This document shows positions 8,853 through 26,992 of a stretch of DNA of 36,126 bases, in pieces (within the stretch, counting starts at the first letter, position 1; each line of letters opens with the position of its first letter). The stretch is from the NCBI GenBank assembly GCA_013138765.1, contig WTCB01000041.1, positions 1-36,126 of the forward strand, in the 5' to 3' direction. A program made the translations under genes and the position numbers. The DNA comes from Candidatus Nanohaloarchaea archaeon. Lineage in GTDB: Archaea; EX4484-52; GLR71. Below the pieces are notes generated by a model. That model saw nothing but the letters and a program-made list of their open reading frames with translations, was not told the DNA's origin and made no database searches.

Positions 8853-9857
8853 TCAATTGGGCAGAATTGAATCTGAAAGTGCATTTGCAATTTCGATATA
8901 ATCTTGTGATTTAGGATCATTACAAGGTGCACCGAGATACAAATTTATAAGACATTTCATTGCAGAGATATCAAGTTTTCGATTATATGGATCTGTTGTA
9001 TAATGAACAAGTGCCTTTCGCATAGCTTTATTTGTTATACATATCCCCACAGCCGTTTTATTGACACATGAACTATCACAATATTGAGTTCCATCAGAAA
9101 GACATTCACCGACAGAATAACCATCACAGACAGAACTCCCCCCACCACAGCCAATACCAGTACTATTACAGACTTTATCAGGGTCATCTACAAATTTACA
9201 GCTACTATCACAAAAATCAATAAAATAAGTTTCACCAACAGTACAACTATTTGAATTATATCCCGGTACCTGACCACCACATTCCATATCGGCACCACAC
9301 GCGACACTACAAGCACCATCATCACTTGACACACCATTAGTACAAGTAAAATCATAAGTCAGATTAGCACAGATATAATTGCTATAAGGCGCAGTCACAC
9401 AATCCGCAATATGCGCATTAGTATCAGAACTGAAAGTCCCAAGACACGCCTGATATCCGGAATCAGAACAATTTTGTATTGTTTCATAACTGTATATTAT
9501 GGTGGCATCATCTGATGAAAGACAGACCCCTTCTAGATAATTCCCTTGATCTGATTTTTCCACATGCGCATTCGTCGCCGAAGACAGATTAAGAATATGG
9601 ATATCATCACAATTATTATTTAAATTAATACCTGTCGGAACCCCAGTCACAGTCACATCCTCACAAGAAACATTATACAAATAATTAGATCCAGTATAAA
9701 GTTCTGCATGCGCATTAAAAAGTCCTGACATCTTATAGACTAAAGTACCCAAACTTTGAGTATTTGATACCGTACAGTTTAATTCAGAAGAAACCGGCAC
9801 CAAGACTAATAAAAATGAAATGACCAATGAAATAATAAACACATTTCTAATTTTCAT
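8853..9857 (-). CDS. Secreted cysteine-rich protein (24 Cys in the mature part) with three NAH-containing repeats
   Basis: The ORF track starts at a TTG (9875). The ATG at 9857 gives a clean Sec signal, MKIRNVFIISLVISFLLVLVPVSS. Three repeats: LFNAHAELYTGSNY / ATNAHVEKSDQGNY / DTNAHIADCVTAPYSNY. The C-terminal half carries clustered Cys (ACSVACGADMECGG, GIGCGGGSSVCDGYSVGEC). No family recognised. Confidence 0.7.
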   Translation of the reverse strand: MKIRNVFIISLVISFLLVLVPVSSELNCTVSNTQSLGTLVYKMSGLFNAHAELYTGSNYLYNVSCEDVTVTGVPTGINLNNNCDDIHILNLSSATNAHVEKSDQGNYLEGVCLSSDDATIIYSYETIQNCSDSGYQACLGTFSSDTNAHIADCVTAPYSNYICANLTYDFTCTNGVSSDDGACSVACGADMECGGQVPGYNSNSCTVGETYFIDFCDSSCKFVDDPDKVCNSTGIGCGGGSSVCDGYSVGECLSDGTQYCDSSCVNKTAVGICITNKAMRKALVHYTTDPYNRKLDISAMKCLINLYLGAPCNDPKSQDYIEIANALSDSILPN

Positions 9858-9891
9858 ATAACCACACAAATTCAATATTTCATTAAATCAA

Positions 9892-10515
9892 TTAACAGCA
9901 CATACCCAAAGCCACACAGCATTCGTCTTTTGTCACAAGACCCAAATCAGAAAGTCTCGTATCACAAGTATTGCCCCTTTCAGCAGCATTACATGCAGTC
10001 TCCTGCAACTCAGAAAGCTTGACAATCGGTTTTTTGATGACTTCTGGCGCCTCTATCAGTTCAGAACTCTGTTGAGACCTATTATTTGCAACATCACCTA
10101 CATCATCATCATCTAAAAAACCATTAATACCAGACCCAAAAGAACTATCCACAACATAAATCTCTTGCAGATACTTATTCTTTAAAGAATCATCAATATC
10201 TGATTTATTTATATTGATTTTAGCCTGTTCAATATAGTTATTCTGTTTTATTATAAGTCCCGCAGAGAATCTTACTTTATCATCTGAATCAAGAGCATTC
10301 AATTCAAGTTCTCGCTCATTTGCTAAAGATATAAGTATTTCAGCCTTATCTATAGAACTGAATGTAAATAATAGATGAACCCTTTCAAAAAATAGATCAA
10401 ATGCATAAAATATATCTCCAGGAAGAACACCTGCATCCACTCTATCACCAACAGCATAAGATACAGGCATAATAAAGATTAAAACAAAGAGAATCACAAT
10501 AAAACCATATTTCAT
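9892..10515 (-). CDS. Secreted protein with a C-terminal six-cysteine module (C-x8-C-x14-CC-x5-CC-COOH)
   Basis: The internal ATG at 10515 is preceded by GGTGGGTGTGG (SD-like) and gives the signal peptide MKYGFIVILFVLIFIMPVSYA|VGD. The track start at 10599 adds an implausible Cys-rich leader. The C-terminus is CNAAERGNTCDTRLSDLGLVTKDECCVALGMCC. Confidence 0.65.
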   Translation of the reverse strand: MKYGFIVILFVLIFIMPVSYAVGDRVDAGVLPGDIFYAFDLFFERVHLLFTFSSIDKAEILISLANERELELNALDSDDKVRFSAGLIIKQNNYIEQAKININKSDIDDSLKNKYLQEIYVVDSSFGSGINGFLDDDDVGDVANNRSQQSSELIEAPEVIKKPIVKLSELQETACNAAERGNTCDTRLSDLGLVTKDECCVALGMCC

Positions 10516-10585
10516 AATACTACCACACCCACCATATATATTTATTAAAAATAGTATATAAAAACATAAGTCACAGATTATAGAA

Positions 10586-11095
10586 TCAACAACAGACATT
10601 AAAATCCAAACAGCAACTCTCTTTAGTCAATAAATTATTTGTTGCAAGATTAACAAACTCACAAAAATCATTATAATCATACCTGACGCACCATGCATTT
10701 GTCTTCATTTCACGTCGTATATTCACAGTGCTTGATTTAATTGTATAATTTATAGAGATATTATTCGGATAATCACCAATATAAGATACACCTTTCTCAA
10801 ATTCAAGTGTATACCCCGCCTTTGCAAGAACAGATCTCTCCTCAACAAGATATTCTTCAATATCATCAATTATAGATTTATGACCCACAACAGAAATAAT
10901 ATTAAATATGTCTGATTCCATTTGATTGATAACAAAAAGAGTCCTATCATACTGCATATATGATAGCTCAATATCACGATTCTGCGTAAGTGTACCATTT
11001 AATACTGTAAGTGAAAAAAGAATGACCACAATACTTATTACAAAAAACTGACCTTTGCGTGTTTTCTTAAAAACTCTTTTTTTTATATCAATCAT
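10586..11095 (-). CDS. Pilin-like protein (class III signal peptide) with a C-terminal six-cysteine module
   Basis: The N-terminus MIDIKKRVFKKTRKG|QFFVISIVVILFSLTVL has a basic stretch, KG-Q, and a hydrophobic helix of about 20 aa, as in archaeal prepilins. The C-terminus is CVRYDYNDFCEFVNLATNNLLTKESCCLDFNVCC. The start overlaps the upstream gene by 8 nt. Confidence 0.7.
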   Translation of the reverse strand: MIDIKKRVFKKTRKGQFFVISIVVILFSLTVLNGTLTQNRDIELSYMQYDRTLFVINQMESDIFNIISVVGHKSIIDDIEEYLVEERSVLAKAGYTLEFEKGVSYIGDYPNNISINYTIKSSTVNIRREMKTNAWCVRYDYNDFCEFVNLATNNLLTKESCCLDFNVCC

Positions 11096-12671
11096 AATAC
11101 CACGATTTCCATGTCATTACATAAGGTTGAGACATATCCTTATTTGCAAGAAGTACAAAATCACTTGATACAACATCGCGTGCATTGTCCTGTATAGTAG
11201 ACAAAACTATTGTTTTTGGTGAAACCCACAATATAAGATTTCTCAAAAGATGCCATTCATCAAGTGATACAATATTATCTGTTATCCATGCAGTCCGTCC
11301 CGTAAAACGACCATAATTTGCGATTGAAACCGGCATTTGCCCACCATAATTAGTCTCAAAATCTGATTCGACCAAAACATATTGAGATCTGTTCACCCCC
11401 TCATCACCAAAACCATGACTTGAATATACTTTATTATCCTTGTTCATATCAAAAAAGACATGAGACTCTTCAATATAGAATTCAATTGAATTTCCACGGA
11501 CATCAATTAATGATATTGTATAATTATTACCGTCAAGTTCAATAATATCACCCTGAAAAAGTCCTGAAAAATAACCATCATTTGTAAAATTAAGATCTTG
11601 ATTTTCATCAATATATAACTTATCATATCCTAAACCAGTAGAATTAATAAGCAAAACCCCATAATCTTCATGTTTCAAAGACATCAACTTAAATTTATAA
11701 ATCCCATTTGTTGAATTAATGGTACTTGAAAAATTCAATGTTGAACGAGAATCACCAATACATACACCACCATCATTAACAGTACAATTAGCAGAACCGA
11801 TTGTATGATTAGTGTCCCCTATATATACCACAACAATACCAGTTGTCATATCCCACCACCCCTCTTCAGAAACATTTAAATTAGAAACACCTTCAATATT
11901 TAATACAACCGGACTTACATAAAAATATTTATGTAATACGTATCCCGCTTCAAATGGATTCAAGTCAGAGAATGTAGAATTAAAATCTAAAGAAGGTAAA
12001 CTTGTATCATTCCATAATAATCCAAAAATATTTTTTTGCACATCAAAATCAACAAATGATTCATTGCTTAAATTTGAAATCTGAATCACACCTTTGCCTT
12101 GCCGAAGGAAATTCAAAAGTTTAATATTATATGTATCATTCATCAGACTGACATGACTGACCATCTCAATATCAGTCCCTTCAATAGGAATTACAAGCAC
12201 ATCAAAAGTTTTCCAATTTGCATCAAATGTAGTATTCCTTATTTCAAGCAAAGTTTTTTTACCATTGATGATCACCTGTTTATCTTCACCAAAAATATTT
12301 TGCGATATATTTGTACCGTATCTAAGGTATGTTTCTTCATCAGATGTCAAGACACCAACACGAATCAATGGTTTAATAAGATGTTTAAGAGTAATTGCAA
12401 CACCCATTTTTTCTTTCCCTGCAAGATACGACGCAACTTCAGAAAATGTATCAAAGCTGTTGCCTGAAATTAATTCAGTATAACCAAGATAGTTCATGAC
12501 ACCCGCAATATCTCTTGATTCCTGTGATAACCGTGCCACACGCCAACCATCATTTTCTGATATTACAGAGATAATATTACTAGAATAACTAAGAAGGATC
12601 ATTATTGCAATAACCGCTTCAAGACTATGCATAAACCCTTTACGCTTAAAACAAAACCGTTTCATAATCAA
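11088..12671 (-). CDS. Large pilin-like protein (527 aa, class III signal peptide); candidate minor pilin or tip adhesin
   Basis: N-terminus MIMKRFCFKRKG|FMHSLEAVIAIMILLSYSS. It shares the module DIIELDGNNYTISLIDVRGN with the adjacent 224-aa protein. Confidence 0.7.
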   Translation of the reverse strand: MIMKRFCFKRKGFMHSLEAVIAIMILLSYSSNIISVISENDGWRVARLSQESRDIAGVMNYLGYTELISGNSFDTFSEVASYLAGKEKMGVAITLKHLIKPLIRVGVLTSDEETYLRYGTNISQNIFGEDKQVIINGKKTLLEIRNTTFDANWKTFDVLVIPIEGTDIEMVSHVSLMNDTYNIKLLNFLRQGKGVIQISNLSNESFVDFDVQKNIFGLLWNDTSLPSLDFNSTFSDLNPFEAGYVLHKYFYVSPVVLNIEGVSNLNVSEEGWWDMTTGIVVVYIGDTNHTIGSANCTVNDGGVCIGDSRSTLNFSSTINSTNGIYKFKLMSLKHEDYGVLLINSTGLGYDKLYIDENQDLNFTNDGYFSGLFQGDIIELDGNNYTISLIDVRGNSIEFYIEESHVFFDMNKDNKVYSSHGFGDEGVNRSQYVLVESDFETNYGGQMPVSIANYGRFTGRTAWITDNIVSLDEWHLLRNLILWVSPKTIVLSTIQDNARDVVSSDFVLLANKDMSQPYVMTWKSWYYD

Positions 12672-12695
12672 TCCAAATCCAATAACTATAAATCC

Positions 12696-13370
12696 TCAAA
12701 AATACATAATATTTATCTTTGCCATAAAACCATCAAGTGTTGAATATCTATTTACCGCAACCATATCTCTATTAATGCTACCCCAACCATAAGATAATGC
12801 TGTTCTTTTAAGACCCACAAAATTTCCATCAGAGTCAATTATCGATATAGTATAATTCACACCATTGATTAAAATAATATTATCCTTTACACGATCACTA
12901 TAAAAACTATCTGCCCAAACATCAACAACATCATAACCAGATATACTACTATTTTGCACAGTAAAATTTACAGTTAATTCATCACTATAATCTTTATTAA
13001 ATACAGCAGTTCCAAAATGATTATTTCCTAAAATATCTTCAGTAAATATTATAGGATACTGTTCAATTATTATCTTCTGCCGATATCTATATTTCTCATC
13101 GATTGAATCACGGAGCTTCGTCCTGTTCCCTGCATAAATATCTATCAAAGATTCATTAAGCACATAATCCTTGATTTGAATATCCCTTAAAAACACTTCT
13201 GAAAAAAACCATGCTTCAGCATGAAGATTATTATTATCAATAGTATCATAAAAAGGACCTATTGAACCCATAGCAATATTTGCCGCATACACAACAGATA
13301 AAGCTAAAACAAAAAATGCAAAAATATAATCTATATTTAACTGTCCTTTACGTCTACACTGCAATAACAC
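12696..13370 (-). CDS. Pilin-like protein (224 aa, class III signal peptide)
   Basis: GTG start. N-terminus MLLQCRRKG|QLNIDYIFAFFVLALSVVYAA. It contains NIILINGVNYTISIIDSDGN, paralogous to a segment of the 527-aa protein. Confidence 0.65.
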   Translation of the reverse strand: MLLQCRRKGQLNIDYIFAFFVLALSVVYAANIAMGSIGPFYDTIDNNNLHAEAWFFSEVFLRDIQIKDYVLNESLIDIYAGNRTKLRDSIDEKYRYRQKIIIEQYPIIFTEDILGNNHFGTAVFNKDYSDELTVNFTVQNSSISGYDVVDVWADSFYSDRVKDNIILINGVNYTISIIDSDGNFVGLKRTALSYGWGSINRDMVAVNRYSTLDGFMAKINIMYF

Positions 13371-13403
13371 ACAAAAGACCCCACATATTATAAATCATAA
13401 AAC

Positions 13404-14342
13404 TTACCCAAAAATCATAAAGACAACAAACGCTACAACAGACAAAAATAATGCATGCTTGACACCTGCAGCTGCCGAACCCTCACTAATTTCACCACAC
13501 ATAAAACCACTGGTTATTGCCTGAATCAAGGCCATCAAAAAGAACAACGCTTCAAAATAACAAAGCTGCCCTTCCCCAAAACCAAAAGGAACACATATAG
13601 AACACACAAAAGGTACCATTGAACAATATTCTATCTCAGAACTGCTTGCAGACGAATCAGAAGCACCAAAAAGATTAACATCCATAAGACCCGAAGAGAC
13701 TAAAGGCATCATTATATTATACATCATAAGAGCTATGACTAAGAAAAGAAAAGAAATAAAATACATCATAATAACCTGCTGAGACATATCTGCTTTTCTT
13801 TCATCATGTAGTTCTTTTATAGCCTTTATATCAGTTGAAAGATCATCCATCACTTCAGTAACATCACCCCCTGCATTAAATGCTTCAAGAATTATAGTAA
13901 ATGACCTCCGCATAATACTACTATACTTAAGTCTATCAGCCATAGACGTCATAACCTGCACAAAAGGCATACCCCAAGAAAGTTGATGCACTGATTTTGC
14001 AATTTCAGAATTAAGTTCACCATAATCAGTATTCATACGGCTGCGTAATGCATCTTGAAATGTCATACCACTTTTTTTTGCTTCAGCAAAATCTCTCAAA
14101 AAACGAGGAAACTGTTCTTCCATACGATTATATTTAGAAAAATTAAAATACGCATAAAGCGATGAAGGCACAACCGAAATTATAGCTCCTAAAAACAAAA
14201 TAAATATACCCAATGATTGAAAAATAGGATTAAAAGCTAAAAAAAGACCAAAGATTATAAATAAAATACCAGTTATAAGAGATCCTTTTTTAAACAATTT
14301 CTCATTTTCATGCCTAAAAAACGTATTTATGTCAAAACCCAT
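13404..14342 (-). CDS. Type IV filament platform protein, C-terminal-half equivalent (T2SSF domain; FlaJ/TadC-like)
   Basis: Polytopic membrane protein with a cytoplasmic T2SSF-like segment, FPRFLRDFAEAKKSGMTFQDALRS...ILEAFNAGGDVTEVMDDL. The ATG lies immediately after the TAA of the preceding platform gene, in the same frame. Confidence 0.8.
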   Translation of the reverse strand: MGFDINTFFRHENEKLFKKGSLITGILFIIFGLFLAFNPIFQSLGIFILFLGAIISVVPSSLYAYFNFSKYNRMEEQFPRFLRDFAEAKKSGMTFQDALRSRMNTDYGELNSEIAKSVHQLSWGMPFVQVMTSMADRLKYSSIMRRSFTIILEAFNAGGDVTEVMDDLSTDIKAIKELHDERKADMSQQVIMMYFISFLFLVIALMMYNIMMPLVSSGLMDVNLFGASDSSASSSEIEYCSMVPFVCSICVPFGFGEGQLCYFEALFFLMALIQAITSGFMCGEISEGSAAAGVKHALFLSVVAFVVFMIFG

Positions 14343-15278
14343 TTAATTCGTCTCCGGAGTTATTCCTTTTATCAATAATATCACACCTGCAGAAACTATA
14401 GGTATTATAAGAAACACAACAGCCATCTGTGAACCAACAATAAATCCAGCCATATCTGTCCCCCCCATAGACCCCATTATGGCAGTAAGCACCATAAACA
14501 TAATTGACCCAATCATCACAACAGTAAGGTATATTTCTACAATCATTGAAAGCTTATGTTGTAACATTTTTAGAATCATCTTATATTGTGACATTGCAGT
14601 CTTTGATTTTTCCCTAAGATAAATACGAAGATCCCCACCTGATAACTCAACAGTCCTCATACCCCATAAAAGATCCATAAGCTGTTGAGACGGTGTCCGC
14701 TCGGCCGCATTTTTCAAAGCATGAAGTATATCAATGCCCAACACATCTACTTCTTCCACAATTTTATTTGCTTCTTTTGAAATTTCACCATATTCATTAA
14801 ATTTTGCAAGTGCACGAAACATCGCAATTGGTGGGGTACCGCCACCAGACAGTGTAGTAAGATACAATGTGGCATACGGAACAAGTCCATCTATCTTTTT
14901 TTTTCTTTCATCCCGACGTATACCTGGATACATATAAAAAAAACCAAAAATAAGCCCCGAAAAAAACACAGCACCAAAAATTGAAAAAAAAAGCGACATA
15001 AATATATTACAAGTAATTATAATGATTATGACCGATAAAGACAATGCCATACAAACAAAAACAACTATTGATGTAAGGACTGCCACAGAAATATAATCAT
15101 CTAAAGCCATGTTTATGTCCCCTTTTTTCATAGAGACCTTAAAATCACTAAAATATTTCATATAAGGCTGTACATAAGGACGAAATAAATCCGAAGCAAA
15201 CTTAACATAATTAAAACTACCTTTCAATTGTTCTTCTTGATTAAATGATTTAATCGATGTTGCTGTCATAATCCTCAC
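14343..15278 (-). CDS. Type IV filament platform protein, N-terminal-half equivalent (T2SSF domain; FlaJ/TadB-like)
   Basis: TM helices plus the FlaJ-like segment PYATLYLTTLSGGGTPPIAMFRALAKFNEYGEISKEANKIVEEVDVLGIDILHALKNAAERTPSQQLMDLLWGMRTVELSGGDL. The start overlaps the ATPase gene end by 29 nt. Confidence 0.8.
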   Translation of the reverse strand: MRIMTATSIKSFNQEEQLKGSFNYVKFASDLFRPYVQPYMKYFSDFKVSMKKGDINMALDDYISVAVLTSIVVFVCMALSLSVIIIIITCNIFMSLFFSIFGAVFFSGLIFGFFYMYPGIRRDERKKKIDGLVPYATLYLTTLSGGGTPPIAMFRALAKFNEYGEISKEANKIVEEVDVLGIDILHALKNAAERTPSQQLMDLLWGMRTVELSGGDLRIYLREKSKTAMSQYKMILKMLQHKLSMIVEIYLTVVMIGSIMFMVLTAIMGSMGGTDMAGFIVGSQMAVVFLIIPIVSAGVILLIKGITPETN

Positions 15279-17298
15279 CGATTAAATCCATCAAAGTATT
15301 ACTATCATTATAATATGCATTAATCACTTCATTGACACGCAAATAATTAGTTATATATTTATCAGACATCCACTCCAATATTTTCATCCTTTGACGAAGT
15401 TGATCTTTCAATAAATTTATACTGATCCCGCTCTCATTAGATATCTTACCAAGAATATGGCTCTCTGAAACAACTAAACATTTATCATTAAATGTATCTA
15501 ACTCAAATACTTTATTAGCTAATATTTTATCATTCTCAGAATCATAACCTATTATCTCTTGAACCTGTGTAACTCTTCGTACATATCCATTCTGTAATTT
15601 TAATCTTTTTGCAAATACCAAAAGATCCAATGTTTCAAGAAGCGACTTTGAAAGATTTATAGGTCTTGTAGTAAGCCTATCTACTACTTTTTCTAAAGAA
15701 TCAGCATGGAATGTTGAAAGTCCAGGGTGACCTGTTGCAATCTGCTGAAAAAATACTGAAGCTTCAATACCACGAATTTCACCCACAATTATATAATCAG
15801 GTCTTTGCCTAAGTGAACCTTTAAGAAGATCAAACATACTGACTTCACCACGACGTTTCCCACTAACATCAGACTCACCAAAACCAACCCGCGAAACCTC
15901 TGGTACCCAATGTTCATGAGATAATTTAATTTCAGGAGTATCTTCTATTGAAACCACTTTTGCAGAAGGTTTTATAAACATGGAAACAGCATTCAATAAA
16001 GACGTCTTTCCAGATGCCGTAGCCCCCACAATCAATATAGATTTTCCATACTCAATTGCAAGCCAGAGATATGCAAGAGTTCTTGAATCCATTGTACCAA
16101 AATTAAGAAGATGTACAGGCGTCAATGGTTCATTAAGGAAACGTCTTATCGTTATATTAGACCCTTTTGATGCAATATCTGTAGCGAGTGTTGCCTGAAC
16201 CCTTGAACCATCAGGTAAAGAACCTTGAAGAAGTGGCTCCGCCATAGATATTGACCTTCCACATTTCTGTGCAATCCTCATAACAAGGGTATCTAATTCC
16301 TCATGAGTCTTAAAAATAATATTAGTCTGCAATGAACCAAGTTTAGGATCCCTATGATAAACATACATAGGTATGCCAACACCATCACAGCTTATATCTT
16401 CTATATGGGAATCATTGAGTATTGGCTGCAAAGCTCCAAGTCCAACAAAATCACGAATTATATAATATTTATATATATCAAGTTTACTTTTATCTACTGA
16501 AAAATTAAAACGTATTATTATCTTTTCCATCATAGATTCTATGTATGTTGTAGATGAATCCTTACTGAATGACTTAAAATCAACATCAATCTCTTCTTCA
16601 ATCACTTTCTTAATTTTATCTATCTGACTTTTATCTTGTAAGGATAAAATAGGTTCCACAACAGTATATATTATACAATTTTTTTTATTATCCCATACAA
16701 TGTTCGCCCAAGCATATACTTTTTCACCATCTTTAGGTGCCGGAGGCGTTAATGGATATTTTATATTTGTCTTAAAAAAATCTGAAGTTGTCAAATTCTT
16801 ACGGACACGTATAGTCTTGAGTTCAAGATTTTCCAAATCCACACCTTTAATATCTTCTTTAAGCGTATTCTTCACATTTTTCTTATAATTACTACCAGAT
16901 ACCTGTTTATTTGCCATAGGATTCGAAATGACAGACGAAAAAGACTGTATATTAGAAACCGTTTCATTTTGATTATCAATAATTCCCGAAACAGCATTTT
17001 GAGAATCCGGATAAACTGGAAGTTGAGACTGATAAGGTCTTGGAACTTGATTACCTGAAAAAGACCTAAACGATTGCATTGGTGCAACATTTTCTTCAAT
17101 TATGAAAATTGGAGATGAATTGCCCCCTTTAGAAAAATTAGTAATAGGTAATTCCCTACGTTTTTCAGCACGAGACAATATTTTTTCAGTATTTTCAATC
17201 AGACCACTATTTATATCACTATGAATAATAGATGCTTGATACCTCTTTGCAAACTTTTTTGTAACTTTTCGAAGATTGAATCGTTTAATACTCACCAC
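15250..17298 (-). CDS. Type IV filament assembly ATPase (FlaI/PilB/TadA, GspE-VirB11 superfamily) with an extended low-complexity N-terminus
   Basis: Walker A VGATASGKTSLLNA, Walker B/Asp box RPDYIIVGEIRG, His box ATGHPGLSTFHADS. GTG start inside a GAGGTGGTGA SD-like string. About the first 190 aa are S/N/Q/P-rich and not part of the usual FlaI fold. Confidence 0.9.
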   Translation of the reverse strand: MVSIKRFNLRKVTKKFAKRYQASIIHSDINSGLIENTEKILSRAEKRRELPITNFSKGGNSSPIFIIEENVAPMQSFRSFSGNQVPRPYQSQLPVYPDSQNAVSGIIDNQNETVSNIQSFSSVISNPMANKQVSGSNYKKNVKNTLKEDIKGVDLENLELKTIRVRKNLTTSDFFKTNIKYPLTPPAPKDGEKVYAWANIVWDNKKNCIIYTVVEPILSLQDKSQIDKIKKVIEEEIDVDFKSFSKDSSTTYIESMMEKIIIRFNFSVDKSKLDIYKYYIIRDFVGLGALQPILNDSHIEDISCDGVGIPMYVYHRDPKLGSLQTNIIFKTHEELDTLVMRIAQKCGRSISMAEPLLQGSLPDGSRVQATLATDIASKGSNITIRRFLNEPLTPVHLLNFGTMDSRTLAYLWLAIEYGKSILIVGATASGKTSLLNAVSMFIKPSAKVVSIEDTPEIKLSHEHWVPEVSRVGFGESDVSGKRRGEVSMFDLLKGSLRQRPDYIIVGEIRGIEASVFFQQIATGHPGLSTFHADSLEKVVDRLTTRPINLSKSLLETLDLLVFAKRLKLQNGYVRRVTQVQEIIGYDSENDKILANKVFELDTFNDKCLVVSESHILGKISNESGISINLLKDQLRQRMKILEWMSDKYITNYLRVNEVINAYYNDSNTLMDLIGEDYDSNID

Positions 17299-17740
17299 CT
17301 CTCAAAAATATAGAGTCACCATCATATTCCACTTTTAATATCTTACCCGAACTGGAAACAATACCTTGAACGTTAACAGAGACATCAACAATTTTCCTGC
17401 TATTACCCATTTTTATCATAAATTTATTTTGAGGTGGATTAAACCCAGATATTAAGTATCTTTCTTGACTTATAGTCTCTGGGATTTCAAGAACAACATA
17501 GCCTGATGTTGCATTTGAATATACAAGCTTATCTATTGCAGAAATTATAAAATTAGAGATCTGCATAGCACTCTGCTCTTCAATATCCCCTGAAACACGA
17601 TTATTTATACTATTAAATGTTGATGAAACTCCTGTAATTATCAAAATTGCAAGAGCAATAAACAATATCTCTTCAAGAACTAAATTCTGTCCTTTACGTT
17701 TTCTTGAAAAATATTGCATCACATTCACACTAACTGCCAA
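17285..17740 (-). CDS. Pilin-like protein (151 aa, class III signal peptide)
   Basis: The N-terminus contains ...MQYFSRKRKG|QNLVLEEILFIALAILIITGVSS. It overlaps both neighbours (11 and 14 nt), which suggests translational coupling. Confidence 0.65.
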   Translation of the reverse strand: MAVSVNVMQYFSRKRKGQNLVLEEILFIALAILIITGVSSTFNSINNRVSGDIEEQSAMQISNFIISAIDKLVYSNATSGYVVLEIPETISQERYLISGFNPPQNKFMIKMGNSRKIVDVSVNVQGIVSSSGKILKVEYDGDSIFLRGGEY

Positions 17741-18683
17741 ATGATACTGTCACAGGTGTCACTGTAAGTGGACCTCCTGTCTTTTCGGCAACTACCCCAG
17801 AAACAAAATCATCAAGAGTAGATATTGTCAATGAAACTTTTGTAAGTGAATCACTTGAACCAATAATATTATTTCCTTTCTTTGTAATCAATGTAAGATA
17901 GCCATTCCCATTTTCATTATTAATATCATCAAGCTCACGATATACTAACTTAAAAATAGTCTTGTATCCATCACCATGGGGGATTGTCTTAACAACGATA
18001 ACTCCTGCCTCATTGACGCCTGAAAAACCAGTATTCACTTTTTCAGGACCAGATATTGTGACAAAATCATTAATGCAATCAATATATTCGACTTTATAAC
18101 CATCAGTACCTAAATGAGTTCCTGAAACCGCCCCAGTATAATCCATAGTATTATCAGTACAATCAACATCAACATCATTAATTGTACACAATAGACTAAA
18201 ATTACATTCATTATTTCCGGGCAGCATCACACTATCAGTATTATTCCCTGTATACATCGGTTGCGATATAGGATTAAACCCATCAAGAGAAACCCATTGT
18301 CCTACTGCTGAAGTAACCCCTTTTGTCATTATTGTATAAGTTATAGAATTGATTCGATTAGAAGGTACCATGGCTTTAATGCTGCCATCAGCAGTTTTAT
18401 TGAGCGTACCGCCGTCAATCCTCATTTCTCCTGCAAGATTAAGATTTATCACGCGAGAACCCCCGGATGATGAAACTTCATCAATTGATGTCTTTATATT
18501 CTGCATAATAGAGAATGCCTGAGTAACCTCTGAATTTGTTTTACTTTTATCAAGCATAGGAAGTCCCCACCAAAGTGCACCTGATACTGCAGCAATACTA
18601 ATCCCCGTAAGCAATATCATAGAGATTATCTGTACCTGCGCTTTTTTCCTAACAAAATTTGACGTCATAATAACCATACCCAT
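17730..18683 (-). CDS. Pilin-like protein (317 aa, class III-like signal peptide)
   Basis: N-terminus ...SNFVRKKA|QVQIISMILLTGISIAAVSGALWW, with Ala at position -1. The extracellular part has 5 Cys (ECNFSLLCTINDVDVDC...). Confidence 0.65.
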   Translation of the reverse strand: MGMVIMTSNFVRKKAQVQIISMILLTGISIAAVSGALWWGLPMLDKSKTNSEVTQAFSIMQNIKTSIDEVSSSGGSRVINLNLAGEMRIDGGTLNKTADGSIKAMVPSNRINSITYTIMTKGVTSAVGQWVSLDGFNPISQPMYTGNNTDSVMLPGNNECNFSLLCTINDVDVDCTDNTMDYTGAVSGTHLGTDGYKVEYIDCINDFVTISGPEKVNTGFSGVNEAGVIVVKTIPHGDGYKTIFKLVYRELDDINNENGNGYLTLITKKGNNIIGSSDSLTKVSLTISTLDDFVSGVVAEKTGGPLTVTPVTVSFGS

Positions 18684-18765
18684 AGATTAAATTAATTTAA
18701 TCATAAAAATTAATTTAAATCAGTTATTAATAATTCGTTACCGTAGAATATATAGTTTTAAGGAA

Positions 18766-18817
18766 AAACAAAAAAATAAAGAAAAATTATTTAAAAAAAG
18801 AAGAAAATAAAAAAAAG
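18766..18817 (-). terminator. Oligo-T tract cluster downstream of the major pilin gene (candidate archaeal terminator or attenuator)
   Basis: The minus strand immediately after the pilin stop reads TC-TTTTTTTT-ATTTTCTTCTTTTTTT...TTTATTTTTTTGTTTTT. Archaeal RNAP terminates at oligo-T runs. This sits in a 135-nt gap in an otherwise overlapping operon. Confidence 0.4.
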
Positions 18818-18818
18818 A

Positions 18819-19334
18819 TTAACAATGTGTATCTGTACCAGATACCACATTACATCCATATGCTAAAACATAACCATTATTTAATATGAACTCAAATGTT
18901 TTTGTAGTGCCTACAACTGGAAGATCCTCAGAAGCAACAGTCAAAATACAGGTCTCACTGATTTCAAGAGCATCATTACTAGTACAAGTACCTGTAAATG
19001 TAGGTGTAATTTCAATGGCACCATCTACTTTATAATTAGTAGTACCTTCATCAATCGCCGCAACTACAAGAGTACCAGTATTCTTAATTATAAAATCAAG
19101 ATTTGCTGAAGTTATAGGATTCTCCTGAACCTGTAATATCTGTAAATCAGTCCGCATCTTATCAGATTGTGCACTCACCTGATCCTCAATAGCAGCAGTC
19201 TGTGTATCAGTCATATCCATTATGAACTCATATGCAAGACCTGCAGCAGCAACAGTCATCATAAGAAGAAGAACCATTGCAATTACTGGAGTAATTCCCT
19301 TTCTGTTAACAATTTTTTTTGACATAATTATCAC
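18819..19334 (-). CDS. Archaeal type IV pilin (Pilin_N/DUF1628-type N-terminus); candidate major filament subunit
   Basis: MIIMSKKIVNRKG|ITPVIAMVLLLMMTVAAAGLAY closely matches the archaeal pilin N-terminal consensus (R/K-G-x-S/T-P-V-I-x-x-x-L-L/M-x-x-x-T-V). It is a small beta-rich body with 4 Cys, is first in the pilin series, and is followed by T-tracts. Confidence 0.8.
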   Translation of the reverse strand: MIIMSKKIVNRKGITPVIAMVLLLMMTVAAAGLAYEFIMDMTDTQTAAIEDQVSAQSDKMRTDLQILQVQENPITSANLDFIIKNTGTLVVAAIDEGTTNYKVDGAIEITPTFTGTCTSNDALEISETCILTVASEDLPVVGTTKTFEFILNNGYVLAYGCNVVSGTDTHC

Positions 19335-19349
19335 TCGTTTTTATAAACA

Positions 19350-19565
19350 TTATTTTTTTACACTCAATAATTTATAGATCCTTAAAAGTATCATTGCATT
19401 GAAATACATCGAACCGACAACAAGCAAAAGAAGCATATTGGTTATGCTCACTGCAATGACCGCTGAATTAAGCATTCCGCCACCTAAAATCAAAAAAGCA
19501 GACACTGTCATCAGCATTATACATACAATCAAAAAATTTTCAAGCATTTCAGGTCCTAATTTCAT
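19350..19565 (-). CDS. Small two-TM membrane protein (71 aa)
   Basis: Two hydrophobic helices (FLIVCIMLMTVSAFLILGG and VIAVSITNMLLLLVVGSMYF). Tightly packed between the coiled-coil gene and the pilin gene. No homology recognised. Confidence 0.45.
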   Translation of the reverse strand: MKLGPEMLENFLIVCIMLMTVSAFLILGGGMLNSAVIAVSITNMLLLLVVGSMYFNAMILLRIYKLLSVKK

Positions 19566-19568
19566 AAA

Positions 19569-20114
19569 TTACACACCACCATACGGATTCTGCTGTGCAG
19601 TCTGCTGCTGTGTCTGGAATGGAGATGCGGCCTGTGCACTTTGAGTCGAAGCAGAACCCGATCGTTTAAGCCTTTTATCAATAGTTGAAAGATTTTCTGA
19701 AATGGATTCATTGCTCTTCAACAATTTATCATTAGCATCAGTTATACTCTTTACTAAAGGTACAACCATGCCACGAAGTGCAGATACGGCCTCAGACTCA
19801 TCAACATCTTCTTTGCCTGCCTCTTCGACAATATCAATAAAACTAGTAAGTTTTCCCTGAAGCGAATCAATCTTGCCTATAAGTGTTGCAAGGTCACCGC
19901 GAAGCGATGTATTTGCCTTTACCATCTCATCAACGATCCGCTGATTAAGCTCAACCATATCAAGTATCTTGTCCATCATCCTCTCCATATTTGTAAAGGA
20001 TTTAGATGATTCCATACTGGTTATTCTTTTTTCAAGCCTACGGAGCGGTGTTAGAGGCACAACTTCATAATCCTCATCATCAGAAATTTGTTCATAATCA
20101 TCTTTTCTTACCAT
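19569..20114 (-). CDS. Coiled-coil protein with a Q-rich C-terminus (first gene of the pilus operon)
   Basis: The track start at 20144 is a TTG. The ATG at 20114 is preceded by GGTGA plus 4 nt. Heptad-like helical sequence (LEKRITSMES...MERMMDKILDMVELNQRIVDEMVKANTSLRGDLATLIGKIDSLQGKL) with the tail SPFQTQQQTAQQNPYGGV. Confidence 0.55.
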   Translation of the reverse strand: MVRKDDYEQISDDEDYEVVPLTPLRRLEKRITSMESSKSFTNMERMMDKILDMVELNQRIVDEMVKANTSLRGDLATLIGKIDSLQGKLTSFIDIVEEAGKEDVDESEAVSALRGMVVPLVKSITDANDKLLKSNESISENLSTIDKRLKRSGSASTQSAQAASPFQTQQQTAQQNPYGGV

Positions 20115-20239
20115 TTTTTCACCAATAACCACTCTACATTTCAACTATTAGTCAAATGTGGTATATATAGGTTATGGTTATTATCCTACAATATTTAACA
20201 GAAACAAAAAATATGCAATATAAAAAACTAAAACAAAAA

Positions 20240-20287: not shown

Positions 20288-21946
20288 TTACATCATAGGA
20301 GGCATACCGCCGCCGCCCATTGGAGGCATACCTTCAGGCATTCCGCCGCCGCCAAGCTTTGATGCAGAGATTACATCATCAATCCTGAGGATCATTTCAG
20401 CAGCTTCAGATGCAGATTTTATTGCCTGTGTCTTTATCTTGACAGGTTCCAAAACACCCTGTTTTAGCATATCTTGTGTATTATTTGTAAATACATCAAT
20501 ACCTGCCCATTTATTGCCTTTGTCATGAGCAGAGCGAAGTTCAACAAGTATATTGATCGGGTCAATTCCAGCATTCTCAGCAAGAGTCTTAGGTATTACC
20601 TCAACAGCATTAGCAAAAGCAACTATGGCAAGCTGTTCACGTCCACCGACAGAATCACTATACTTTCTTAACTCTTTTGCAATTTCAGCTTCAGGAGAAC
20701 CACCACCTGCAACAACTTTGCCTACCTCAATAGATGCAGAGACACCGCCAAGAGCATCTTTCATAGCTCTTTCAATTTCATCAACCACATGATCAGTTCC
20801 GCCACGGACAAGTATTGAGACTGATTTAGGATCCTTACATTTTCGTACAAATATCATCTCACTTCCGGATATTTTCTTCTCTTCAACAATACCTGCAGAA
20901 CCAAGATCATCCGCATTAATTTCATCAAGATTAGATATTATGCTTCCACCTGTAGCTTTTGATAAGGCATCCATATCAGATTTCTTGACTCGTCTTAAGA
21001 CCATTATGCCCGCTTTAGCAAGATAATACTGTGCCATGTCATCAACACCTTTTTGACAGAATACAACATTTGTCTTTGATGCAATTATCTTTTCAACCAT
21101 CTTTTTAAGCATCTTTTCTTCCTGTTCTAAAAACGCATTCATCTGAGAAGGGTCAGTAATCCTTATCTGCGCATCACTTTCCAGCTCTTTTACTTCAATA
21201 GCACTATTGATAAGAGCAATCTTAGCATTTTCAATCTTTTTTGGCATACCTGAATGAACCACTTCCTTATCAATTATAAGACCGCTGATAAGTGTTGTAT
21301 CATCTGTAGACCCGCCAGCTTTTTTCTCAAGCTTTATCTGATCAAGATCAATGACTGTTTTACCTTCATCTTCAACAGCCACCTGAATTATAGATTCAAC
21401 TGCAATTTTTGCTAAAAACTCTTTTGCAGATTCACTGGATTTACCAGTCATTGAAGTAAGTGCAATCTTTGTAAGAAAATCCTTATCCTTAATATCAACA
21501 GCAATTGCAATCTTATCCAAAATTTCAAGACTTTTCTCTTTTGCAAGCCTGTAACCCTGAGCAATACTTGTAGGATGAATCTTTTGTTCAAGAAGTGTTT
21601 CTGACTGTTTGAGGAGTTCACCAGTAAGAACTGCAGCAGTAGTTGTACCATCTCCTACTTCTGCATCTTGTGCCTTTGCAACTTCAACAACCATCTTTGC
21701 AGCCGGATGTGTTATCTCCATCTCTTCAAGTATAGTCACACCATCATTTGTGATCACGACCTCACCTAAAGAATCCGTAAGCATCTTATCCATACCTTTA
21801 GGTCCAAGTGTCGTCCTGACTGCATCAGCCACAATTTTTGCAGCCGCAATGTTTGCCATCTGCGCATTCCTTCCGCTCTCTCTAAAAGTGCCTTCAGGCA
21901 CAACAATTATAGGTTGTCCACCAATCTGTCCATTCATATTTTTCAT
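20288..21946 (-). CDS. ths: Thermosome subunit (group II chaperonin, CCT/TCP-1 family)
   Basis: Hallmarks are [26 protein letters not shown] (nucleotide binding) and VAGGGSPE. The C-terminal tail is [21 protein letters not shown]. The length is 552 aa. Confidence 0.95.
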
Positions 21947-22012
21947 TCTCCCTGTTTTTTAAGAAACTGTATAATATAATCTTGTAAGAAGTATTGATTC
22001 ATGCGCAACCAA

Positions 22013-22026
22013 GTTTTATAAACTTT
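22013..22026 (-). promoter_or_regulatory. Candidate BRE/TATA box for the thermosome gene
   Basis: The minus strand reads AAAGTTTATAAAAC, about 70 nt upstream of the ATG at 21946. TTTATAAA matches the archaeal TATA consensus. Because the box is palindromic, its orientation is not certain. Confidence 0.35.
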
Positions 22027-22086
22027 ATGATTATGTGAGTATACAGAAAAAATTAAAAAACAAATCAAAAATCTAAAAAAACATTT

Positions 22087-22140
22087 AATTTATAATTTAT
22101 TTTATAAATCATTAAAACTATTTTAATAAATGATTTTTAA
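22087..22140. repeat. Left copy of a 54-bp imperfect direct repeat flanking the IS
   Basis: AATTTATAAtttattTTATAAATCATTAAAActaTTTTAATAAatgaTTTTTAA aligns with 24270-24323 at 46/54 positions by manual alignment. Weaker similarity extends further left (ACAAAT...ATCTAAAAAA). Confidence 0.6.
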
Positions 22141-24218: not shown

Positions 24219-24269
24219 CTAAAAGCTATTTTTATAGACAAATATCTAAAAAATATATCAAACAAGTTC

Positions 24270-24323
24270 AATTTATAACTTAATTTATAAATCATTAAAA
24301 TCCTTTTAATAACTCGTTTTTAA
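24270..24323. repeat. Right copy of the 54-bp imperfect direct repeat flanking the IS
   Basis: See 22087-22140. It is separated from the proposed right IS end (24218) by about 50 bp that align only weakly with sequence left of 22087. Confidence 0.6.
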
Positions 24324-24408
24324 TAAAGTTTTAAAAAGCTATCAACGTTAAGTAGTATCAATGATTAAACAATCAAATGAATTCAAACTAAAATAAAAGT
24401 GAAACCTT

Positions 24409-24708
24409 ATGACAACAGAGATTAAAAAAATAGAAATTCCAACAACGTTAGATGAAGCTAAATCATATTTAAGAGACGAATATGATAAACTTAAAGATAT
24501 AAAAAACACTCTTGAACGTAAATATAACTCAGGTCTAACATATGATACGCCCAATGAAGCGTGGTGGGGGGCACAATACATACCAAAAATAAATCAAATA
24601 GGGGACGAAATAAGTTATATAAAAGAACTTTGTAGTAAAACAGAATCAGAAATTATAGCAGATGTTAAAAATTATATCAACTCACAAATAGAAGAACATA
24701 ACACATAA
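24409..24708 (+). CDS. Hypothetical small helical protein (99 aa)
   Basis: ATG start with a partial SD (AGTGA) 6 nt upstream. Charged, helical-looking sequence with no recognised family. The structured repeat follows 19 nt after the stop. Confidence 0.5.
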   Translation: MTTEIKKIEIPTTLDEAKSYLRDEYDKLKDIKNTLERKYNSGLTYDTPNEAWWGAQYIPKINQIGDEISYIKELCSKTESEIIADVKNYINSQIEEHNT

Positions 24709-24727
24709 AGAAATAAAACAATAAAAG

Positions 24728-24858: not shown

Positions 24859-24933
24859 ATAAATGAAACAACCCCTCCATCACTTAGAGATAAAAAGTAT
24901 AGTAAAACTATCGAAGACGGAACCGTAACTAAA

Positions 24934-25137: not shown

Positions 25138-25219
25138 TGTATTAAAAAATAATGAAAATAATATTCAAAACTAAATAGAGAAACAATAAATGAAATTAAA
25201 ATAAAAAAAGGTGAAAAAT

Positions 25220-26101: not shown

Positions 26102-26102
26102 A

Positions 26103-26153: not shown

Positions 26154-26176
26154 CAAAAATAAAAGAGATTATAATT

Positions 26177-26971: not shown

Positions 26972-26992
26972 AATAAAAAAAGTACAAGAGTT

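Follow-up and report, generated by a model that had tools for sequence, protein, structure and literature searches.

The 13 densely packed genes on the minus strand between positions 8853 and 20144 are a genuine type IV pilus gene cluster, complete in its parts, from a tiny symbiotic, Aenigmarchaeota-like DPANN archaeon. The region is very likely the Aenigmarchaeota version of a filament cassette that is conserved across cluster-2 DPANN as the type IV pilus "Locus 1," in which GroEL lies beside a coiled-coil protein (Hamm 2024; Nat Commun, PMC11291902, Fig. 4). The cassette most likely builds a host-adhesion pilus. Gene content, family assignments, conservation of the signal motif and synteny were established directly. 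The first-pass annotation, made from the sequence alone, had recognized an archaeal type IV filament operon, which is supported here. It had also called the operon atypical, but the same gene order proved to be the DPANN norm in a survey of 64 loci and is already in print (Hamm 2024; PMC11291902). This is a standard, published DPANN pilus locus and not an atypical new system.

Gene order and assembly machinery

The near gap-free run of minus-strand genes described earlier was reproduced in the list of open reading frames, gene by gene and at every coordinate. Neighboring genes overlap by 11, 14, 29, 8, and 14 nt, and intergenic gaps are 0–33 nt throughout, with a 135-nt T-rich gap behind the gene for a 171-aa protein as the sole exception. 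The products are a PilB/FlaI-family ATPase, two T2SSF proteins, six proteins whose N-termini are of the class III (prepilin-like) kind, one coiled-coil protein of the cytoplasm, a miniprotein with two transmembrane (TM) helices and two secreted Cys-rich proteins. As first noted, neither a FlaH/KaiC-like gene nor an A24 peptidase is found anywhere in the window, i.e., the whole 36-kb stretch of DNA analyzed, and a motif scan of ≈1.4 Mb of related loci gave no prepilin peptidase. These absences are nevertheless not diagnostic of an unusual system, since FlaH occurs only in the archaellum and genes for prepilin peptidases often lie outside pilus loci (Makarova 2016).

The assembly ATPase (682 aa, 15250–17298) matches both T2SSE (1.1e-31) and PilB3_C (3.9e-9) above the Pfam cutoff. 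Its Walker A (GATASGKT), Walker B and His box are all intact, and it carries a low-complexity N-terminal extension. The platform is encoded as two halves. The TadB-like N-terminal half (311 aa, 14343–15278; T2SSF 8e-14) covers 6–249 of 555 in one ArlJ/FlaJ model, and the TadC-like C-terminal half (312 aa, 13404–14342; T2SSF 4.6e-16) covers 186–448 of 465 in another. The profile matches thus bear out the earlier description of a FlaI/TadA-like ATPase with a split platform.

The first gene of the cassette encodes the coiled-coil protein CC (191 aa, 19569–20144), for which neither a TM segment nor a signal peptide was predicted and for which a Pfam search returned only coiled-coil noise. Its family is present in 56 loci and has a conserved N-terminal motif, [DE]xYE[IV]VPxxPxRxLEKR, followed by the coiled coil. 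CC corresponds to the "CCP" of DPANN Locus 1, whose coiled-coil proteins have been read as sigma-1-like attachment fibers and not as cytoplasmic parts (Hamm 2024; PMC11291902). The miniprotein (71 aa, 19350–19565) has TM segments at residues 6–34 and 36–55. Orthologs of 69–75 aa occupy the same position in nine loci (including L001, L003, L004, L005, L008, L037, L056, and L067), and as the protein is short it is probably under-detected.

The six pilin-like proteins

The N-termini of the six prepilin-like proteins read RKG↓I (171 aa), KKA↓Q (317 aa), KG↓Q (151, 224, and 169 aa) and KG↓F (527 aa), each leading into a single hydrophobic segment of roughly 20–30 aa. This agrees exactly with the six class III signal-peptide proteins reported before. 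The K-G↓Q/I/F motif and the hydrophobic helix are kept in 42–75 members per family (17 for the P11 family), and an acidic residue at +5 or +6 is conserved in three of the pilin-like families.

P3 (171 aa, 18819–19334; RKG↓ITPVIA) is the archaellin/PilA-like pilin of the set and the probable candidate for the major subunit. It had been labeled a DUF1628-type pilin. Its match to Pfam Pilin_N (DUF1628) stays under the cutoff (22.5 against 25.2 bits), but the TIGR02537 archaellin/pilin N-terminal model passes (4.9e-8; 32.3 bits, cutoff 20). The ortholog in L003 contains PF01917, and the class III motif is present in 50 of 53 family members. The P3 gene is found in only 28 of the 64 cassettes, so in many cases another protein takes this role or the gene for the major pilin lies at another site. 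The intergenic region 18684–18818 has T runs immediately behind the stop codon of P3 and then a TATA-like element, AACTATATATTC, before P4; the CC gene is preceded by a similar element, ACCTATATATACC. From these signals the region may represent an archaeal terminator or attenuator combined with an internal promoter.

The remaining five proteins are minor pilin-like. For P4 (317 aa, 17730–18683), 14 of 26 family members match DUF7289 (best 2.9e-10), and hhalign paired it with a haloarchaeal DUF7289 protein (probability 75%, E 2.6e-5). The AlphaFold2 (AF2) model of P4 (pLDDT 83.6) has an N-terminal helix at residues 11–72 and an all-β domain; this predicted structure has the "lollipop" shape of pilins, and a fold search against the PDB gave no match. 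P5 (151 aa, 17285–17740; Glu at +6) matches DUF7266 with a Pfam E of 0.013 as a single protein and in 20 of 29 family members (best 1.3e-8), with a weak hhalign match to the predicted DUF7266 partner (E 0.02). P9 (224 aa, 12696–13370; Asp at +5) belongs to a family in which 12 of 29 members match DUF7287 (best 2.6e-6), also the top hhalign partner (E 2.5e-3).

P10 (527 aa, 11088–12671; KG↓FMHSLE) represents a family found in 58 loci that varies from 130 to 845 aa in length. One of 23 members matches DUF7288 (0.0019), and the hhalign match (probability 43%, E 2.5e-4) extends over just 28 N-terminal columns, where P10 and the haloarchaeal DUF7288 protein have the H3-L5-E6 register in common. The AF2 model of P10 was unusable (pLDDT 32). 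P10 is a candidate tip or adhesin subunit. P11 (169 aa, 10586–11095; KG↓QFF) has relatives in 22 loci. DUF7261 is matched by one of 13 members (0.01) and is the top hhalign partner (E 6e-3). The protein ends in a Cys module, C-x9-C-x14-CC-x5-CC, and long orthologs, some of 750–850 aa, carry Laminin_G_3 or DUF2341 lectin domains.

Taken individually, the P4, P9, P10, P11, CC and 340-aa proteins of the window have no Pfam or NCBIfam match above threshold, and the DUF assignments of P4, P9, P10, and P11 come from their family members and from weak profile matches. In a 5 × 7 hhalign matrix every DPANN pilin-like family paired best with its predicted DUF partner. Judged by sequence profiles, the five families appear to map one-to-one onto DUF7289, DUF7266, DUF7287, DUF7288, and, weakly for P11, DUF7261. 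The statement that the non-core proteins match no family therefore gives way to these family-level matches and to the DUF5667 identity of a 235-aa protein.

Assembly of a filament, processing, the roles of the subunits and attachment to a host are proposed here from the homology to type IV pili. All six pilin-like proteins would enter the membrane, where a prepilin peptidase whose gene lies at another genomic site would cut the short basic leader after the K-G/A site. A hexameric PilB/FlaI-family ATPase acting on the two half-size TadB/TadC-like proteins could then drive polymerization. P3, with the T-tracts behind its gene, would be the probable major subunit, and P4, P5, P9, P10, and P11 would serve as minor pilins, probably in a complex that primes the filament or forms its tip. 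Adhesion and host specificity likely reside in the large, length-variable P10 and in the C-terminus of P11, which is a Cys module in this lineage and a lectin domain in others. CC and the 2-TM miniprotein may be DPANN-specific accessories; as a guess, they could act at the motor as a scaffold or as a regulator.

The same proteins might instead form a short pseudopilus or surface-display device, comparable to a T2SS, a bindosome or a Com system, that presents P10 or P11 adhesins or lectins, exports neighboring products or imports host DNA. We consider this unlikely. Five of the six prepilin-type proteins look like minor pilins, and the acidic residues in three families, the lack of a candidate major pilin in over half of the cassettes and the long lectin-domain P11 orthologs would all fit such a device. 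DNA import through DPANN pili has been suggested (PMC9563170), and a 2026 preprint proposes functionalized TFF machineries for archaea. On the other hand, P3 resembles archaellins and PilA, and the T-tract behind its gene looks like a terminator, a typical feature of major subunits that are strongly expressed; published work counts the haloarchaeal relatives of the pilin set among adhesion pili; and the window contains no genes for substrate-binding proteins with class III signals.

Conservation in DPANN and relation to known systems

An adhesion pilus of the Locus 1 type also agrees with the distribution of the cassette. The recurrent order is thermosome, coiled-coil, (2TM), (pilin), P4, P5, ATPase, TadC-N, TadC-C, P9, P10, (P11), and it is seen in most of ≈85 loci from Aenigmatarchaeota, Nanohaloarchaeota, Undinarchaeota and other DPANN. 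Among the 64 loci with enough flanking sequence, 63 have P5 and 58 have P4, while the coiled-coil gene occurs in 48 and the T2SSF genes in 59 and 58; further downstream, P9 is present in 50 and P10 in 48. The cassette was found in L001, L003–L006, L087, L088, and most of the 80 named DPANN genome loci, and the order recurs gene for gene in the genome of Ca. Nanohalovita haloferacivicina and more than 50 other loci. A survey of related genomes thus places this gene order among those widely conserved in DPANN.

DPANN islands with FlaI and TadC were flagged earlier as pilus "dark matter" (Makarova 2019; PMC6393860, Fig. 2A), and conserved DPANN loci were later described as holding GroEL, CCP, FlaF/PilA, CpaF, and TadC, with proteomic detection in Ca. 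Nanohaloarchaeum antarcticus (Hamm 2024; PMC11291902). In the window as in Locus 1, the thermosome (GroEL) stands by the coiled-coil protein, and FlaF/PilA-like filament genes, a CpaF-type ATPase and a TadC platform come next; the taxa are alike too (Aenigmarchaeota, Nanohaloarchaeota, Nanoarchaeota, and Undinarchaeota). The window differs in two extra downstream genes for secreted Cys-rich proteins, common only to three close relatives. These papers neither name the five minor-pilin families nor tie them to DUF7287, DUF7288, DUF7261, DUF7266, or DUF7289. The thermosome gene (Cpn60/TCP-1, 20288–21946, minus strand; Cpn60_TCP1 1e-181) adjoins the cassette in 31 of the 54 loci whose upstream flank spans 5.5 kb or more and appears to be a conserved neighbor, an adjacency that does not imply functional membership. 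Upstream of it the window, unlike Locus 1, carries an IS-bearing insertion of 6.3 kb.

The same five pilin-like families are encoded on a Halobaculum halophilum plasmid (NZ_CP058531.1; L089) in the order Pilin_N, ATPase (PilB3_N/PilB3_C), fused T2SSF, DUF7287, DUF7288, DUF7261, DUF7266, DUF7289. Its ATPase is PilB3/PilB4-like. The locus serves here as an example of the euryarchaeal "system 2" multi-pilin type IV pilus, which corresponds to clade 2, PilB4-type (Makarova 2016, Fig. 4B); from published descriptions, it would be of the H. volcanii PilB4 type. Both loci have PilB3_C on the ATPase, and the shared gene order covers only 7287-7288-7261 downstream of the platform, as DUF7266 and DUF7289 follow DUF7261 in L089 and lie upstream of the ATPase, in inverse order, in the window. 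[quoted passage not shown]

The operon had been described as closest in logic to Epd and Tad systems, which is reasonable for the split platform and no further. The Epd pilus of Methanococcus maripaludis ("system 1," Makarova clade 1) likewise has a two-gene platform and many minor pilins in an operon of ∼11 genes, and two tadC genes and multi-pilin sets have been described (Makarova 2016), as has a split-platform "system 1" from DPANN (Sivabalasarma and Albers 2026, preprint). By its description, however, Epd has its own in-cluster peptidase, EpdA, which the cassette lacks, and a major pilin without a globular domain, unlike the archaellin-like globular part of P3. Bacterial Tad/Flp pili share the separate TadB and TadC genes and a CpaF/TadA-type ATPase without a retraction paralog. 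Among PDB entries, however, the ATPase scores only 145 bits against CpaF and 379 bits against the archaeal GspE of A. fulgidus (2OAP), and the window has no Flp-type pilin, secretin or TadZ.

It is very improbable that the locus represents a new, atypical class of type IV filament, unlike any layout described so far, in which the secreted Cys-rich proteins would be integral parts. The proteins without individual database matches and the missing PDB fold match of P4 would speak for it, as would a split platform, known from system 1, that occurs together with a PilB3_C ATPase and the pilin set of a single-platform haloarchaeal locus. The synteny survey largely refutes it, however, as many DPANN have this layout and it is already in print, and the family-level DUF ties and the narrow distribution of the Cys-rich genes point the same way.

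That the locus is a reduced archaellum for swimming can practically be discounted: the ATPase scores best against NCBIfam FlaI (404 bits), ArlJ is the top-scoring model for both halves of the platform, P3 has an archaellin-like N-terminus with weak matches to Arch_flagellin (sub-threshold), ArlF, and ArlG, and JGI annotators labeled homologs "FlaI," but the equivalog cutoff of 550 bits is missed, the euryarchaeal pilus-type 2OAP outscores FlaI structures (300 bits), the platform is split, and, of the archaellum set (FlaB/FlaI/FlaJ/FlaH/FlaFG/FlaCDE or FlaX), the window has no FlaH, ArlCDE, ArlX or other stator or switch genes and no above-threshold FlaF or FlaG. Seven archaellum components are listed as obligatory (Makarova 2016), and the subunits present were considered unable to form an archaellum (Hamm 2019). 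The earlier view that the locus is not an archaellum, Aap or Ups system is upheld.

Cysteine-rich proteins

Extracellular Cys had been described as abundant across the locus. Four proteins are indeed enriched (7.4% in the 340-aa, 3.8% in the 235-aa, 3.6% in the 169-aa, and 2.3% in the 171-aa protein), but the remaining pilin-like proteins contain 0–1.3%. The secreted 235-aa protein (9892–10599) matches DUF5667 above the cutoff (8.3e-13). Its Cys tail, ending in VTKDECCVALGMCC, resembles the P11 tail, ending in LTKESCCLDFNVCC, and on this resemblance the C-terminal Cys module of the DUF5667 protein is a predicted paralog of the P11 tail. The secreted 340-aa protein (8853–9875) has 25 Cys residues, three NAH-containing repeats and an N-terminal hydrophobic signal, and Pfam and PDB searches with it gave no match.

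The DUF5667 gene occurs only in the closely related genomes L001, L003, and L007, and the 340-aa gene only in these and in one remote match. The two genes are genus-level, lineage-specific additions and not core parts, in contrast to the integral partners they had been taken for. Since the orthologs are 183–222 aa long, the true start of the 235-aa reading frame is probably Met29 (∼10515). Likewise, orthologs of 334–338 aa suggest that the 340-aa protein probably starts at Met7.

Gene map and core machinery

The six-frame ORF list agreed exactly with the gene map of the first-pass annotation, giving 13 ORFs on the minus strand from 20144 down to 8853. Overlaps between these ORFs are 8–29 nt long and gaps are at most 33 nt, the sole exception being a 135-nt T-rich spacer after the gene for P3, a 171-aa pilin-like protein.

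According to Pfam, the 682-aa ATPase contains a T2SSE domain (1.1e-31) and a PilB3_C domain (3.9e-9; 37 bits against a cutoff of 27), and no PilB3_N domain was detected in it. The Walker A motif (GATASGKT), the Walker B motif and the His box are all intact. A search of PDB sequences showed that the closest solved ATPase is GspE from A. fulgidus (2OAP, 379 bits, 4.5e-112), followed by FlaI (300 bits) and CpaF (145 bits). The platform is encoded by two genes for proteins of about 311 aa with one T2SSF domain each (8e-14 and 4.6e-16). As one of them aligns with the N-terminal half of the ArlJ/FlaJ models and the other with the C-terminal half, the platform is split.

Six proteins, P3, P4 (317 aa), P5 (151 aa), P9 (224 aa), P10 (527 aa) and P11 (169 aa), carry a class III signal with a basic leader, G or A at position −1 and a hydrophobic helix of about 20 aa. 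Their predicted cleavage sites (↓) are RKG↓I, KKA↓Q, KG↓Q (three proteins) and KG↓F. One hydrophobic segment follows in every case, and the motif is kept in 17–75 members per family. P3 also scores above the cutoff of TIGR02537, and an Arch_flagellin-like match spans its residues 19–155. Three features of the type IV filament superfamily, a PilB/VirB11-family ATPase, a polytopic platform and subunits with class III signals, are thus found in the cassette.

The public gene calls for 11088–12671 and 17730–18683 (514 aa, P0192, and 312 aa, P0121, respectively) begin at internal ATGs, and the 514-aa call strips the KG motif from P10. Conservation of KG↓xxHxxE within the family supports the longer, TTG-initiated form.

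Pilin-like protein families and their haloarchaeal counterparts

None of the non-core proteins had been assigned to a recognized family in the first-pass annotation. Taken individually, P4, P9, P10 and P11 of the window indeed gave no significant Pfam match, and P5 itself reached only 0.013 with DUF7266. When their orthologs were scanned singly against Pfam (13–29 per family), all five families found a match, so that the earlier statement no longer holds. The P4 family matched DUF7289 (14 of 26 members, best 2.9e-10), the P5 family DUF7266 (20 of 29, best 1.3e-8) and the P9 family DUF7287 (12 of 29, best 2.6e-6), while a single member each linked P10 to DUF7288 (1 of 23, 0.0019) and P11 to DUF7261 (1 of 13, 0.01). 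By these matches and the profile comparison below, the DUF7287/DUF7288/DUF7261/DUF7266/DUF7289 set appears to be present, with strong support for P4, P5 and P9 and weak support for P10 and P11.

Only DPANN proteins came up when the P4 and P10 profiles were used in word-indexed homolog searches; haloarchaeal loci were found by tblastn of the ATPase against plasmids. On the Halobaculum halophilum plasmid NZ_CP058531.1, genes for a Pilin_N protein and a 145-aa hypothetical protein precede those for a 989-aa ATPase with T2SSE, PilB3_N and PilB3_C domains and for a fused 679-aa T2SSF protein. After the platform gene come DUF7287, DUF7288, DUF7261 (weak), DUF7266 and DUF7289 proteins, i.e., the same five families. 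When the DPANN family alignments were compared with the proteins of this locus in a 5 × 7 hhalign matrix, the best match was the predicted partner in all five rows. Several of the values are weak when taken singly: P4-DUF7289 reached 75% probability (E 2.6e-5), P10-DUF7288 43% (E 2.5e-4), P9-DUF7287 12% (E 2.5e-3), P11-DUF7261 6% (E 6e-3) and P5-DUF7266 2% (E 0.02), with the P10 and P11 matches lying mainly in the N-terminal helix. An H3-L5-E6 register is also common to P10 (KG↓FMHSLE) and the DUF7288 protein of the haloarchaeon (RA↓QAHTLE). Given the five concordant rows, the independent Pfam matches of family members and the kept sub-order 7287-7288-7261, the best reading is that the five families are one-to-one orthologs of the haloarchaeal set. 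If these five "dark" pilin-like proteins are such orthologs, Haloferax genetics could inform DPANN biology.

The AF2 model of P4 (pLDDT 83.6, pTM 0.75) has, as expected, a long N-terminal helix (residues 11–72) followed by an all-beta domain. Foldseek of this model against the PDB gave no hit below E 0.05 (TM ≤0.12), and the P4 profile gave only a marginal match to a flagellin N-terminus among PDB sequences (E 0.21). The P10 model, built with 12 close homologs, was unusable (pLDDT 31.9).

Conservation across DPANN archaea and relation to known systems

Sequence identity of the ATPase to its DPANN homologs is 49–88%, reaching 82–88% for proteins of Aenigmarchaeota and "DPANN group" MAGs and about 50% for hundreds of DPANN proteins, including those of Nanohaloarchaeota. 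Gene tables of five relatives, ranging from the same genus up to Ca. Nanohalovita haloferacivicina (complete genome), have a common gene order. It runs from a thermosome gene through genes for a protein of about 190 aa, a small membrane protein, pilin-like proteins of about 170 aa (one or two), proteins of 230–320 aa and about 140 aa, and the ATPase to two T2SSF genes and then to genes for proteins of 220–290, 530–840 and 110–180 aa.

The order was then surveyed in 80 loci from genomes of named GTDB species (Aenigmatarchaeota, Nanohaloarchaeota, Undinarchaeota and a few Nanoarchaeota), the six-frame ORFs being sorted by iterated profiles for which the window proteins served as seeds. The iterative P3, P4 and P5 profiles converged on one another via the shared N-terminal helix, so the best-scoring assignment, together with Pfam, decided family identity in place of these merged profiles. 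Among the 64 loci with at least 3.5 kb of upstream sequence, P5 was found in 63, P4 in 58, the 191-aa coiled-coil protein in 48 and P3 in 28. At least 5.5 kb of downstream sequence was likewise available for 64 loci, and among these the two platform genes were found in 59 and 58, P9 in 50, P10 in 48 and P11 in 21. The two secreted Cys-rich proteins, a 235-aa DUF5667 protein (9892–10599) and a 340-aa protein with 25 Cys residues (8853–9875), were found in three loci only (L001, L003 and L007), all from close relatives. These counts describe an ordinary DPANN arrangement with a genus-level appendix of two genes. The layout had been called atypical and the Cys-rich proteins partners of the system; the first view fails because the gene order recurs across the surveyed loci and such a locus is already published, and the second because the pair is confined to the three close relatives.

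The published locus is Locus 1, the cluster-2 DPANN type IV pilus locus, which comprises GroEL, GatE, a coiled-coil protein, the filament proteins FlaF and PilA, CpaF, TadC and an NTP hydrolase and for which proteomics detected several products (Hamm 2024, PMC11291902). As in Locus 1, the window has a thermosome gene (20288–21946) beside the coiled-coil gene (19569–20144), an arrangement also seen in Ca. Nanohalovita haloferacivicina and others, and it combines in one locus a CpaF-type ATPase, TadC and FlaF/PilA-like genes orthologous to the DPANN copies. Locus 1 corresponds gene for gene to the Ca. Nanohalovita haloferacivicina locus and so matches the window; the arCOG number of the ATPase was not found in the supplement of Hamm 2024. 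Earlier work on DPANN had noted a pilus-like system made up of FlaI, FlaJ and an archaellin-like protein (Hamm 2019), and FlaI/TadC islands whose "dark" signal-peptide proteins were predicted to be pilins (Makarova 2019, PMC6393860). The window locus is an added member of this known, conserved DPANN predicted pilus locus, with a lineage-specific pair of secreted Cys-rich genes. The locus itself is not a discovery; the useful yield includes a component-by-component parts list.

DPANN archaea are obligate episymbionts. Few surface machineries are kept across several of their phyla, and the cassette is among these.

By the criteria of other systems the cassette is mixed. A recent preprint assigns split-platform loci, including those of DPANN, to an Epd-like "system 1" and loci with a single platform and an extended ATPase to "system 2" (Sivabalasarma and Albers 2026). 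Two tadC genes occur in many clade 1 and clade 2 loci, and euryarchaeal clade-2 systems have their own multi-pilin sets of the PilB4 type (Makarova 2016). The first-pass annotation saw the logic as closest to Epd/Tad-like systems, which stands as far as the two-gene platform goes. However, the Epd cluster includes the EpdA peptidase and the window has none in the cluster, and the major Epd pilin lacks a globular domain whereas the Arch_flagellin-like match covers most of P3; Epd was compared by description only. The PilB3_C domain and the five-DUF pilin set instead resemble system 2 (PilB3/PilB4-type), which differs in having a single-gene platform, as the haloarchaeal locus does. It is conceivable, but in our view rather unlikely, that the cassette represents a hybrid subtype with a split platform like that of system 1, an ATPase C-domain and five minor pilins like those of system 2, and a DPANN-only module of a cytoplasmic coiled-coil protein and a 71-aa two-TM protein, linked to the thermosome across phyla. 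It would then be a universal host-attachment organelle of cluster-2 DPANN, with host specificity set by a hypervariable P10 body and a swappable P11 C-terminus. The latter would be a Cys-knot-like module here, with a duplicate on the DUF5667 protein; in Nanohaloarchaeota it would be a LamG/DUF2341 lectin.

An archaellum can be dismissed, as no FlaH (KaiC-like), FlaF/FlaG, FlaCDE or FlaX was found among the window ORFs with Pfam/NCBIfam and the FlaI equivalog score of 404 is below 550. The reported lack of a FlaH-like gene and of a peptidase was borne out for the whole 36-kb window, as Pfam and NCBIfam searches of all window ORFs gave neither a FlaH-like gene nor an A24 peptidase. A GxGD[..]K regex scan of the window and 85 loci, a weak negative, gave no prepilin peptidase candidate either. 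Peptidases are mostly encoded away from the locus (Makarova 2016), and TadV has been reported for Tad clusters of Nanohaloarchaeota (PMC9563170).

Proposed assembly, variable subunits and neighboring genes

Judged by homology, the machine would most likely act as a non-retractile type IV pilus. A peptidase whose gene lies elsewhere in the genome would cut the prepilins after K-G/A, P3 would be polymerized by the ATPase and a heterodimeric TadB/TadC-like platform, the five minor pilins would prime or cap the fiber, and P10 and the variable P11 C-terminus would bind the host. P3 is archaellin/PilA-like, and the T-tracts and TATA-like box that follow its gene suggest a strong separate transcript.

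Acidic residues close to the predicted cleavage site are common in three families, with Glu at +6 in P5 (38 of 58 members) and P10 (36 of 41), and Asp or Glu at +5 in P9 (29 of 42). The commonest P10 residue at +3 is His (12 of 41). No conserved acidic residue at +5 or +6 was seen in the P3, P4 and P11 families. The P5, P9 and P10 residues are reminiscent of the contacts that Glu5 makes in bacterial pilins and would fit an ordered minor-pilin complex.

P10 varies between 130 and 845 aa across loci, and long P11 orthologs carry Laminin_G_3 or DUF2341 lectin domains, as in the 750–860 aa proteins of the Nanohaloarchaeota loci L010, L025 and L033. Adhesin modules appear to be swapped around a constant core. 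As host-binding parts, P10 and the variable C-terminus of P11 are the candidates that stand out, and a useful pointer from this analysis is to both proteins as variable, probably adhesive subunits. In other related loci, a 1855-aa lectin/dockerin giant follows the cassette (L005) or three LamG proteins lie ahead of it (L088).

The coiled-coil protein has no signal peptide and no TM segment, and an acidic YE[IV]VP...LEKR motif is conserved in it. A member-wise Pfam scan of its family gave only scattered coiled-coil noise (Mis12, ATG17 and FlgN). We favor a cytoplasmic role at the motor; a sigma-1-like attachment fiber is favored by Hamm 2024 (PMC11291902). The thermosome gene directly upstream is found there across Aenigmatarchaeota, Nanohaloarchaeota and other DPANN, and adjoins the cassette in 31 of the 54 related loci with at least 5.5 kb upstream.

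Cys enrichment had been described across the locus. It is real yet local, with 7.4% Cys in the 340-aa protein, 3.8% in the 235-aa protein, 3.6% in P11 and 2.3% in P3, as against 0–1.3% in the other pilin-like proteins. The C-termini of P11 (10586–10700) and of the DUF5667 protein (9892–10000) end in a shared C-x9-C-x14-CC-x5-CC module (tails LTKESCCLDFNVCC and VTKDECCVALGMCC, respectively). P11 keeps the module in L001, L003, L005, L007 and L009, and the DUF5667 protein keeps it in L001, L003 and L007. This looks like a pilin tail duplicated onto a secreted protein. A repeat of about 45 aa containing S/T-x-NAH occurs three times in the 25-Cys protein (FNAHAE, TNAHVE and TNAHIA), ahead of a Cys-dense region. 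The protein has no Pfam or PDB match, and its repeats are possibly trefoil- or lectin-like.

The remaining window genes encode sugar-nucleotide enzymes, TruA, the thermosome, an IS4-like transposase and a surface protein of 2644 aa with repeats. Neither a tRNA scan nor an Rfam scan of the window gave a match. Between the thermosome and phosphoglucomutase genes, which are directly adjacent in L001 and L003, lies a plus-strand block of about 6.3 kb (21947–28223) with the IS4-like DDE transposase gene (22354–24129, plus strand), two unknown ORFs and an SDR gene. Direct repeats of 64 nt (22077–22140 and 24260–24323; 81% identical), each with an internal palindrome, lie on either side of the transposase gene, and a 50-nt repeat is present at both 24724 and 26100. 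The 2644-aa surface protein (143–8077, plus strand) has at least 14 CarboxypepD_reg-like beta-sandwich repeats and a C-terminal TM anchor. Its gene faces truA in a convergent arrangement immediately downstream of the pilus operon, and the same giant gene neighbors the cassette in L001, L003, L004 and L007. S-layer-like proteins near T4P loci have been described before (Makarova 2016).
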